Virus record (IMG/VR): IMGVR_UViG_3300045988_153444
Direction: 5' to 3' (one strand)
Length of the DNA stretch: 32,473 bases
From: a virus
Taxonomy: Duplodnaviria; Heunggongvirae; Uroviricota; Caudoviricetes
A model generated the notes under the pieces. The model made no database searches. It was not told the origin of the DNA and saw only the letters and a list, made by a program, of their open reading frames with translations. Both the position numbers and the translations under genes were made by a program. Positions 28,084 to 28,264 of the stretch are shown here, piece after piece. Each line of letters begins with the position of its first letter. Positions within the stretch are counted from its first letter, which is position 1.

Positions 28084-28100
28084 AACCACGTAACGTGGTT
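28084..28100. promoter_or_regulatory. Perfect 17-bp palindrome (AACCACGT-A-ACGTGGTT) next to a -10-like TATGAT; candidate operator of the repA promoter
   Basis: Palindrome read directly; by analogy to CopB/RepA2 operators in IncFII replicons (inference). Confidence 0.4.
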
Positions 28101-28139
28101 ATGATTGTGGGTGTCTGGTTGGAAAGTGACCAGATATGG

Positions 28140-28255
28140 AAACAAAAAGCCCGCAGATAAATCTGCGGGCTTCTTGCGACATCCACGGAAAACCAACAAC
28201 TAACCATGGGCGCCTCGACAACTCCCATTATACGTTGGTTTTCCGTGGACGCAAG
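28140..28255 (-). ncRNA. Candidate CopA/Inc-type antisense RNA against the repA leader
   Basis: A 16-bp perfect inverted repeat (28182-28197 / 28234-28249, 36-nt loop) and a GC hairpin (28149-28170) that, on the minus strand, is followed by UUUUUGUUU. Ends are not defined. Confidence 0.4.
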
Positions 28256-28264
28256 AGCGAACAT

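Follow-up and report, generated by a model that had tools for sequence, protein, structure and literature searches.

In plasmid R1 the antisense RNA CopA engages its target CopT through a loop-loop contact, followed by pairing of a single-stranded 5' segment, and in IncFII plasmids oriR is positioned downstream of repA. The RNAI of the I-complex plasmids is about 70 nt in size, while the RNAI molecules of ColE2 and of the staphylococcal plasmid pSK41 have their target upstream of the ribosome-binding site, with repression thought to proceed via refolding of the leader, which would conceal the start region or do away with an activating structure. An RNAI of 60–61 nt has been described for IncK, and single nucleotides in the RNAI loop determine whether IncK1 and IncK2 are compatible within the I-complex (PMC10724649). 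The subject of this study is the repA leader at positions 28084–28264 of the viral record IMGVR_UViG_3300045988_153444, the whole 32,473-nt stretch of which is called the window. The segment appears, on balance, to be the copy-number control region of an IncFII-superfamily replicon on a phage-plasmid. There is good reason to expect from its sequence that a regulatory RNA is made from the minus strand, ends at about 28141 and represses repA.

The initial annotation of this region proposed an antisense control of the CopA/CopT type. The antisense idea finds support in an initiator of the IncFII_repA family, a conserved promoter and terminator and a fast-evolving loop; membership in CopA/CopT does not, no model match having been obtained.

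Related leaders used for comparison

Related leaders were obtained from three sources, namely three Salmonella plasmids (DNA ~77% identical), contigs encoding RepA homologues that are 81–85% and 58–63% identical, and a scan of viral and metagenome collections for the conserved 21-nt core GCCTCGACAMCTCCSATTATA. The resulting 31 distinct leaders, 271 nt each, fall into group A (19 leaders, RepA 81–100% identical, from E. coli, Salmonella, K. aerogenes and others) and group B/C (12 leaders, RepA ~60% identical). The core and the overall layout are common to both groups: a minus-strand terminator hairpin with its U-run is followed by a long interrupted hairpin, which comprises an apical hairpin with the loop GCCUCGACAAC and then ATTATA, and by the Shine-Dalgarno (SD) sequence and AUGGA. 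The arm sequences of the long hairpin are wholly different between groups A and B. Two contigs encoding further RepA relatives, L008 (63% identical) and L007 (37%), carry a classical I-complex leader in place of a window-type leader.

Promoter, terminator and fold of the predicted antisense RNA

The predicted antisense RNA and its signals are located on the minus strand as follows.

28249–28254, minus strand: -35 hexamer TTGCGT of the predicted antisense promoter, separated by a 16-nt spacer from the -10 and conserved in group A
28227–28232, minus strand: -10 hexamer TATAAT of the predicted antisense promoter (sigma-70), a perfect consensus that reads ATTATA on the plus strand
28141–28220, minus strand: predicted antisense (counter-transcript) RNA of ~80 nt, comprising a 5' tail, the stem-loop SL1 and the terminator; -39.2 kcal/mol, z -6.15
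28178–28214, minus strand: SL1, GGCG.CCAUGG [15-nt loop] CCGUGG.UGUC, paired in 14/14 distinct sequences and showing covariation
28140–28170, minus strand: intrinsic terminator of the antisense RNA, with the stem at 28170–28149 and the U-run UUUUUGUUU at 28148–28140

The TATAAT hexamer was found in all ten leaders whose retrieval relied on protein homology or BLAST similarity and made no use of the DNA pattern. The corresponding promoter of group B reads TTGCAT, an 18-nt spacer and TATAAT, and at the equivalent position L007 and L008 have TTGCTT or TTGAAA, 16 nt and TATAAT; an RNA running from this TATAAT to the U-run of L007 and L008 would be ~70 nt long. No conserved candidate for an antisense promoter was found in the related leaders to the right of 28255, that is, to the right of the inverted repeat. 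Judged from these sequences, the antisense RNA probably starts at the internal TATAAT promoter. A start near 28220 and an end near 28141 would give an RNA of ~80 nt, not the ~110 nt first estimated and, since the promoter is located inside a 16-bp inverted repeat, the transcript would hold the complement of the left arm only.

The GC hairpin reported at 28149–28170 is present as GCCCGCAGAT-AA-ATCTGCGGGC and is preceded on the plus strand by the A-run AAACAAAAA, so that the minus strand reads a hairpin and then a U-run, as had been proposed for a leftward terminator. With a stem of 10 bp, of which six are G-C pairs, it qualifies as an intrinsic terminator. A compensatory double change from A-U to G-C was seen in the stem in three of the 14 distinct group A sequences, and group B has an equivalent hairpin and U-run of different sequence. 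The plus-strand tail of the hairpin is UUCUUGCG in group A and the U-poor UCUGCGG in group B.

Folding of both strands gave structures more stable than those of shuffled sequences for every segment: an 84-nt minus-strand segment (z = -6.15), a 121-nt minus-strand segment (z = -10.13) and the 189-nt plus-strand leader (z = -8.92), with 0/200 shuffles as stable in each case. The single-stranded 5' tail of the predicted antisense RNA is GUUGUCGAGGCG, and the same order of 5' tail, SL1 and terminator was predicted in all 12 relatives folded, from both groups. Over the 14 distinct group A sequences, 100% of cells in SL1 and the terminator are paired, and the covariation score was reached by none of 500 shuffles. 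The stems are kept in related replicons by compensatory changes. The SL1 pair 28205:28187 occurs as GC, GU, AU and UG, and in the long hairpin 28187 shows further covariation with 28244, meaning that three positions change together. In all 22 sequences folded, the SL1 segment is more stable on the minus strand (-12.4 to -17.9 kcal/mol) than on the plus strand (-4.9 to -9.8 kcal/mol); SL1 is minus-strand-specific because its G.U pairs become A.C mismatches on the plus strand.

A covariance model, R1, was built from group A alone and comprises the 5' tail GUUGUCGAGGC, a stem-loop with variable apex and the terminator. It scored 113.5 bits in the window and 103.6 bits in L003, which was outside the model build. 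Group B and C loci were recovered at full length, with strand and position unchanged, at 30.4–31.7 bits (E ~1e-7), and no match was obtained at IncFII or I-complex leaders. The model also scores 32–36 bits in group A on the plus strand at 28104–28181, where hairpin H1 of the mRNA leader (described below) and the palindromic terminator hairpin mimic the layout of a stem-loop and terminator; the match is probably a side effect of that palindrome and not a second RNA.

Hypervariability of the proposed recognition loop

28198–28203, not assigned to one strand: hypervariable tract, AACTAA in the window, at the apex of the SL1 loop and in the internal loop of the target hairpin

Variability was assessed in 13 distinct E. 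coli-type leaders over 266 aligned columns. Twelve of the 19 variable columns are located within 28192–28203, where ~1.2 would be expected. Seven alleles of the tract were recognized among near-identical E. coli copies (AACTAA, AATTAA, AACAACAAT, AACAATAT, AAACATAT, AAAACAAT and AACAAT), together with an additional variant in which a 5-nt GGAAA duplication is placed directly upstream of the tract, in the left arm. The equivalent apex in group B varies as CTA, AACTA, CATA, CAGAA, AAACA, CAAAAG, CAGGT and CAAGT. As the tract forms both the SL1 apex and an internal loop of the mRNA in both groups, it would be single-stranded in both partners. The pattern is as expected of a specificity determinant, and it is proposed on this basis that the tract sets incompatibility.

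A second, smaller hot spot was noted in the E. coli copies at 28122–28127, in the loop of H1, where three of the 19 variable columns are located. No obvious correlation was found between the H1-loop variants and the alleles of the main tract.

The repA mRNA leader and the start of RepA

The plus-strand elements of the leader are listed below.

28067–28075, plus strand: predicted promoter of the repA mRNA, an extended -10 TGGTAGAGT; TGnTAGAGT in 5/5 group A lineages, with flanks that vary
28084–28100, plus strand: 17-nt palindrome, with arms AACCAC/GTGGTT and the length of 17 conserved and a centre that varies
28112–28136, plus strand: hairpin H1 of the mRNA leader, conserved as a hairpin although its sequence has turned over entirely from lineage to lineage
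28173–28255, plus strand: long hairpin of the repA mRNA, the proposed antisense target, with left arm 28173–28197, apical hairpin 28206–28228 and right arm 28234–28255
28253–28267, plus strand: Shine-Dalgarno AAGAG (28253–28257) and start AUG (28265–28267); SD and AUGGA conserved in groups A and B
28265–29113, plus strand: repA, 282 aa from 28265 or 278 aa from 28277

The 16-bp perfect inverted repeat that had been reported was recovered exactly, as TCCACGGAAAACCAAC at 28182–28197 and GTTGGTTTTCCGTGGA at 28234–28249 with 36 nt between them, and it extends further, CTTGCG (28173–28178) pairing with CGCAAG (28250–28255). Its 16-bp arms covary at four positions across lineages, as in L018 with TCCACCGGAATCCAAC and GTTGGATTCCGGTGGA. 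The loop of the apical hairpin, CGCCUCGACAACU, is invariant in both groups, and the long hairpin of group B has an identical layout and apical loop with different arm sequences. The inverted repeat is regarded as mainly an mRNA hairpin. From its 5' end, the predicted mRNA leader would comprise the hairpin of the palindrome, H1, the complement of the terminator and the long hairpin. H1 folds with -10 to -15.7 kcal/mol on the plus strand compared with -3.6 to -9.9 kcal/mol on the minus strand in 22/22 sequences.

The palindrome at 28084–28100 was likewise found as described, AACCACGT-A-ACGTGGTT. From the extended -10 at 28067–28075, the repA mRNA is inferred to start near 28083, which would place the 5' end of the mRNA at the palindrome. 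The palindrome is therefore probably the 5'-terminal hairpin of the repA mRNA, and it may possibly also be a protein operator. In Salmonella the stem of the palindrome is closed by a G.U pair, possible on the plus strand only. The -10-like TATGAT beside it does exist at 28100–28105, but it is replaced in relatives by TATGAA, TAAGAA, TAAGTA, TGCGAA or TACGAT, and its role as a -10 element was ruled out for this lack of conservation. A further promoter called by the scan, TTGACT-16-TATGAT at 27951–27978, is not conserved in Salmonella and was also rejected as the repA promoter, although it may add transcription in E. coli.

The AUG at 28265 is the homologue of the first-ORF (open reading frame) start in all groups. 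It is in frame with repA in the window and L018, while in the Salmonella and Klebsiella lineages the ORF that it opens is out of frame, 13–46 aa long and overlaps the repA start, and in groups B and C it opens ORF1 of 42–162 aa, whose stop overlaps the repA start. The RepA of relatives is annotated from the position equivalent to 28277. The frame reported to be open from 28136 does run uninterrupted to the repA stop at 29113; neither as a leader peptide nor as the N-terminus of RepA does it hold in relatives, since +5 and +2 nt alleles interrupt it in near-identical plasmids, and it is also interrupted in Salmonella. Public annotation from the Prokaryotic Genome Annotation Pipeline (e.g. WP_001704997.1; a 326-aa cluster of 525 members) often starts RepA at the equivalent of 28136, which implies 43–47 extra residues translated through the terminator and target hairpins. 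Given that natural alleles and Salmonella break this frame, the 325-aa form of RepA starting at 28136 is very probably an annotation artefact. An ORF from ATG 28206, read by eye, was rejected as well, for it has no SD and group B lacks the ATG.

In group C the first ORF (L009 2016–2504, L012 2028–2504) is a truncated RepA paralogue of 158–162 aa, 31% identical to the N-terminal half of the window RepA, and its stop overlaps the start of the complete repA (ATGA). In the group B contigs L016 and L011 a shorter first ORF of 42–63 aa occupies the corresponding place. This looks as if the initiator gene had been exchanged while the control module in front of it stayed in place, the 5' part of the former gene surviving as a coupling leader.

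Proposed mode of action and alternative explanations

Pairing over 28141–28220 would leave at least 33 nt between the antisense RNA and the SD downstream, and the RNA must then act at a distance. In the mechanism proposed, the antisense RNA would contact two single-stranded sites, its SL1 loop meeting the internal loop of the target and its 5' tail the apical loop, and would then pair with the entire 5' half of the long hairpin. The 3' arm thereby freed would refold onto the start-codon region at 28264–28279, and less RepA would be translated. As the dose of antisense RNA would track plasmid copy number, negative feedback would result, and the hypervariable loop would set which plasmids cross-react, that is, their incompatibility. 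The alternative hairpin on which this proposal centres is the following.

28233–28279, plus strand: alternative hairpin R:T, the proposed OFF state, in which the right arm 28233–28247 pairs with 28264–28279, over AUG 28265 and AUG 28277

When the half complementary to the antisense RNA was masked, R:T was the minimum-free-energy fold in all five group A lineages. In group B, masking let the right arm refold onto the SD of ORF1 (CCUGGCU with AGGCCAGG). The R:T duplexes have -13 to -15.8 kcal/mol, with p 0.01–0.05 per lineage against shuffles. The partner sequences before the repA AUG vary between lineages (ACCAAU, CCAGCG, UUCAACG, CCAAC), and all of them complement CGUUGG. Transcription attenuation was considered and rejected, as neither the long hairpin nor R:T has a U-run after it on the plus strand.

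Several observations weigh against the scheme as a whole or against parts of it. In terms of ensemble accessibility, masking closed the start codon in three of the five group A lineages; in the window accessibility of the start codon changed only slightly, from 0.37 to 0.26, and in L018 it opened. Masking was predicted to open the SD further in group A instead of closing it, and a longer 3' context brought pairings that compete with R:T. As for the promoter, its -35 hexamer TTGCGT matches three of six consensus positions, the promoter scan did not call TTGCGT-16-TATAAT (the same scan missed the terminator as well), and ATTATA could be conserved for mRNA structure instead. Few independent lineages stand behind the stem covariation, most pairs being invariant, and composition may be part of the strand asymmetry, the minus strand being rich in G and U. 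No case of two co-resident alleles was found among 71 records in 71 genomes. While the sequence signals, folds, conservation, covariation and hypervariability are direct computational observations, it is from these that we infer RNA production, the promoter, the 5' end, the repression of repA and the refolding step. Refolding is therefore put forward tentatively as the main mode of action, with modelled folds behind it and a chance that falls somewhat short of even.

Among the alternatives, an antisense RNA that acts without refolding, either by RNase III cleavage and decay or by blocking an activator pseudoknot between the apical CGCCUC and GAGCG or GGGCG by the SD, is considered unlikely. 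The apical loop is invariant in both groups, and a short complement adjoins the SD (GGCG in L014, L010 and L032, GAGCG in E. coli and AGGC in group B). Moreover, both L008, whose RepA is the closest relative (63% identical), and L007 use the I-complex pseudoknot system, scoring 49–57 bits on the Rfam model PK-repBA, and the accessibility values given above do not back refolding uniformly. On the other side, the complementarity of the apical CGCC to GAGCG (E. coli) or GGGCG (L014, L010, L032) in the SD region amounts to 3–5 bp and is imperfect in the window, where the Rfam pseudoknot models also find no match. A coupled leader peptide is not conserved in group A, and the R:T hairpin is the minimum-free-energy fold in each lineage tested.

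The version given in the initial annotation, in which an RNA of ~110–115 nt starts to the right of 28255, comprises the whole inverted repeat and the terminator and represents a CopA homologue acting on a CopT-like target and leader peptide, is improbable. In its favour, the 121-nt minus-strand segment has a very stable fold (-69.5 kcal/mol, z -10.1), a weak -10-like TATGTT is readable at 28266–28261 on the minus strand, and RepA does belong to the IncFII_repA family. The candidate promoter to the right of 28255 is, however, not conserved in Salmonella, L018 or group B, while the TATAAT inside the repeat is invariant, and position 28205, unpaired in the full hairpin, covaries with 28187 as expected from SL1. 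Nor does a CopA homologue fit with the failure of the CopA model to match (against 96.6 bits in the control), the absence of a UUGGCG/CGCCAA motif from the leader or the breaks in the 28136 frame in relatives.

That there is no regulatory antisense RNA at all is very improbable. The hairpins would then be cis elements of the mRNA that affect its stability or translation, protein operators (the palindrome might serve RepA autoregulation, for instance) or a bidirectional terminator that shields repA from the phage genes upstream. Watson-Crick inverted repeats are indeed strand-symmetric, so that the long hairpin alone is silent on the functional strand, and the palindrome half-sites keep a constant, operator-like spacing. 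Left unexplained, however, would be the invariant minus-strand TATAAT with its spaced -35, the restriction of the U-run to the minus strand, the G.U pairs that make SL1 specific to that strand and the confinement of hypervariability to the SL1 apex.

The replicon, its carrier and distribution

The product of repA in the window matches the Pfam family IncFII_repA (PF02387; E 1.2e-43, 150 bits), with the domain at residues 52–318 of the 325-aa ORF opening at 28136, and is 30% identical to classical IncFII RepA over 256 aa. The window is part of a phage-plasmid of ~47–49 kb in which tail-fibre and other phage genes are present. The replicon was found in 71 of 5,426 complete E. coli genomes (1.3%), always on plasmids and at most once per genome; the carrier plasmids are ~39–57 kb among the matches listed, mostly 47–50 kb. 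Near-identical copies occur in PLSDB on 59 plasmids of Escherichia and one of Klebsiella (K. aerogenes), with three further records, Salmonella plasmids, at ~77% DNA identity, and three phage records isolated on Yersinia pestis carry the replicon at 98.6–98.8% DNA identity. The reference strain E. coli ATCC 25922 is among the carriers, its plasmid NZ_CP009073 having a leader 98% identical; the sole record with two copies is a 94-kb record of this strain, about twice the size of its 48.5-kb plasmid.

Group B leaders had no match in PLSDB. Among species-representative genomes the DNA-pattern scan gave no matches and the protein scan one relative (37%). MOB-suite assigned no replicon type to the plasmid records examined, and no RNA gene is annotated in this region in current records. 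Literature searches on the phage-plasmid family, the Yersinia phages and this control region returned nothing relevant, with one possibly related 2026 preprint not covered. The phage-plasmids pSLy3 and SSU5 belong to a different, larger group.

Other features of the surrounding DNA were noted. The ~630-bp non-coding stretch 3' of repA contains, within 29114–29400, a perfect DnaA box (TTATCCACA, 29255–29263) followed by a very A+T-rich segment, and the replication origin is probably located here. Upstream of the repA promoter, GATC repeats (AGATCC-N7-AGATCCTTTT) are located at 27985–28012 and in most group A lineages; equivalents occur in L004, L007, L010 and L014, with four GATC sites in 36 nt in L007. 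They could be Dam/SeqA sites or protein-binding sites. In the window and in identical plasmids, the minus strand encodes a hexapeptide-repeat acetyltransferase at 27106–27669, and there are ~450 bp without an ORF of more than 41 aa. Many relatives (L002, L004, L005 and L006) have instead a hin/cin-like DNA-invertase gene between the tail-fibre genes and repA, so that the tail-fibre host-range region is organised differently in the window and in those relatives. Genes for a RelE/ParE-family toxin (117 aa) and then a helix-turn-helix antitoxin (99 aa) at 30570–31222 are likely a plasmid-stabilising toxin-antitoxin pair, and HicAB or ParE modules occupy this site in relatives.

If true, the proposed control would account for the setting of copy number in the plasmid state, and would add a structurally distinct, experimentally tractable RNA switch beside the CopA and RNAI paradigms. 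A defined antisense RNA with its specificity loop would also give a marker for replicon typing and incompatibility in these phage-plasmids. As ATCC 25922 carries the replicon, the control is readily testable. No principle is overturned, antisense control being expected of this replicon superfamily.

Comparison with known systems

The Rfam model of CopA (RF00042) had no match at E<=10 in 27400–29700 and, at gathering score, no match anywhere in the window, while the positive control L049 scored 96.6 bits. The models PK-repBA (RF01089) and PK-repZ (RF01087) likewise had no match in the window (E<=10) or in L016, with L007 at 56.7 and L008 at 49.3 bits as controls (gathering score 45). Permissive and gathering Rfam scans gave only sub-threshold, terminator-like matches on the minus strand (Thr_leader, CsrC), and thus no known RNA family fits.

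The likeness to CopA/CopT of R1 and R100 begins with the initiator, which falls in the same Pfam family, and extends to a short predicted counter-transcript in the repA leader ending in a hairpin and U-run, to a plasmid-variable loop that would set specificity, and to the DnaA box and AT-rich region downstream of repA, at the place of oriR. Two-site binding, loop to loop and then through a single-stranded 5' segment, is plausible here as well. The differences are nonetheless considerable. Here the recognition stem-loop forms a hairpin apart from the terminator, and the predicted antisense promoter is placed within the long target hairpin. The target is located at least 33 nt upstream of the SD, making steric blocking unlikely. 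RepA is 30% identical, and CopA model match, loop motif, tap and copB are all lacking: the UUGGCG/CGCCAA loop motif is absent from the leader (TTGGCG occurs 12 times on both strands of the window, the nearest at 26401); no tap-like coupled leader peptide was found in the window, where the ORF from the conserved SD and AUG 28265 is repA itself; and no conserved small ORF resembling copB stands upstream of repA, the neighbour being the acetyltransferase here and the DNA invertase in relatives.

The RNAI/pseudoknot systems of the I-complex (IncB/O, K, Z, I1) and IncL/M are carried by the nearest RepA relatives, L008 (63%) and L007 (37%), and they share with the window an antisense promoter of the form TTGnnn-16 nt-TATAAT just upstream of the first start codon, as well as the surroundings of the terminator (AAACAAAGCCCC in L007/L008 compared with AAACAAAAAGCCCG in the window). 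There, too, loop nucleotides decide compatibility (PMC10724649). Their Rfam models match neither the window nor group B, however, and their long bulged stem with a UUGGCG loop is replaced here by a tight terminator hairpin and the separate SL1; there is also a new 83-nt target hairpin. A short leader peptide that stops at the start of repA is missing from the window and not found consistently among the group A relatives. With the RNAI of ColE2 and pSK41 the likeness is one of logic only, that of acting at a distance, the Rep proteins and RNA sequences being unrelated.

It is possible, though held with some reserve, that this locus represents a previously undescribed class of antisense copy control for IncFII-superfamily replicons on a family of phage-plasmids. 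In it the promoter would be located in the target hairpin, a three-way switch would operate between left arm, right arm and start region, with the start codon hidden by the right arm once the antisense RNA has taken up the left one, and a hypervariable loop of 6–9 nt would diversify under diversifying selection into new incompatibility types. The control is of the kind expected for the replicon superfamily, in a form that matches no catalogued RNA family, and what is distinctive of it is the separate recognition stem-loop, the promoter embedded in the target hairpin and the layout of left arm, right arm and start region.

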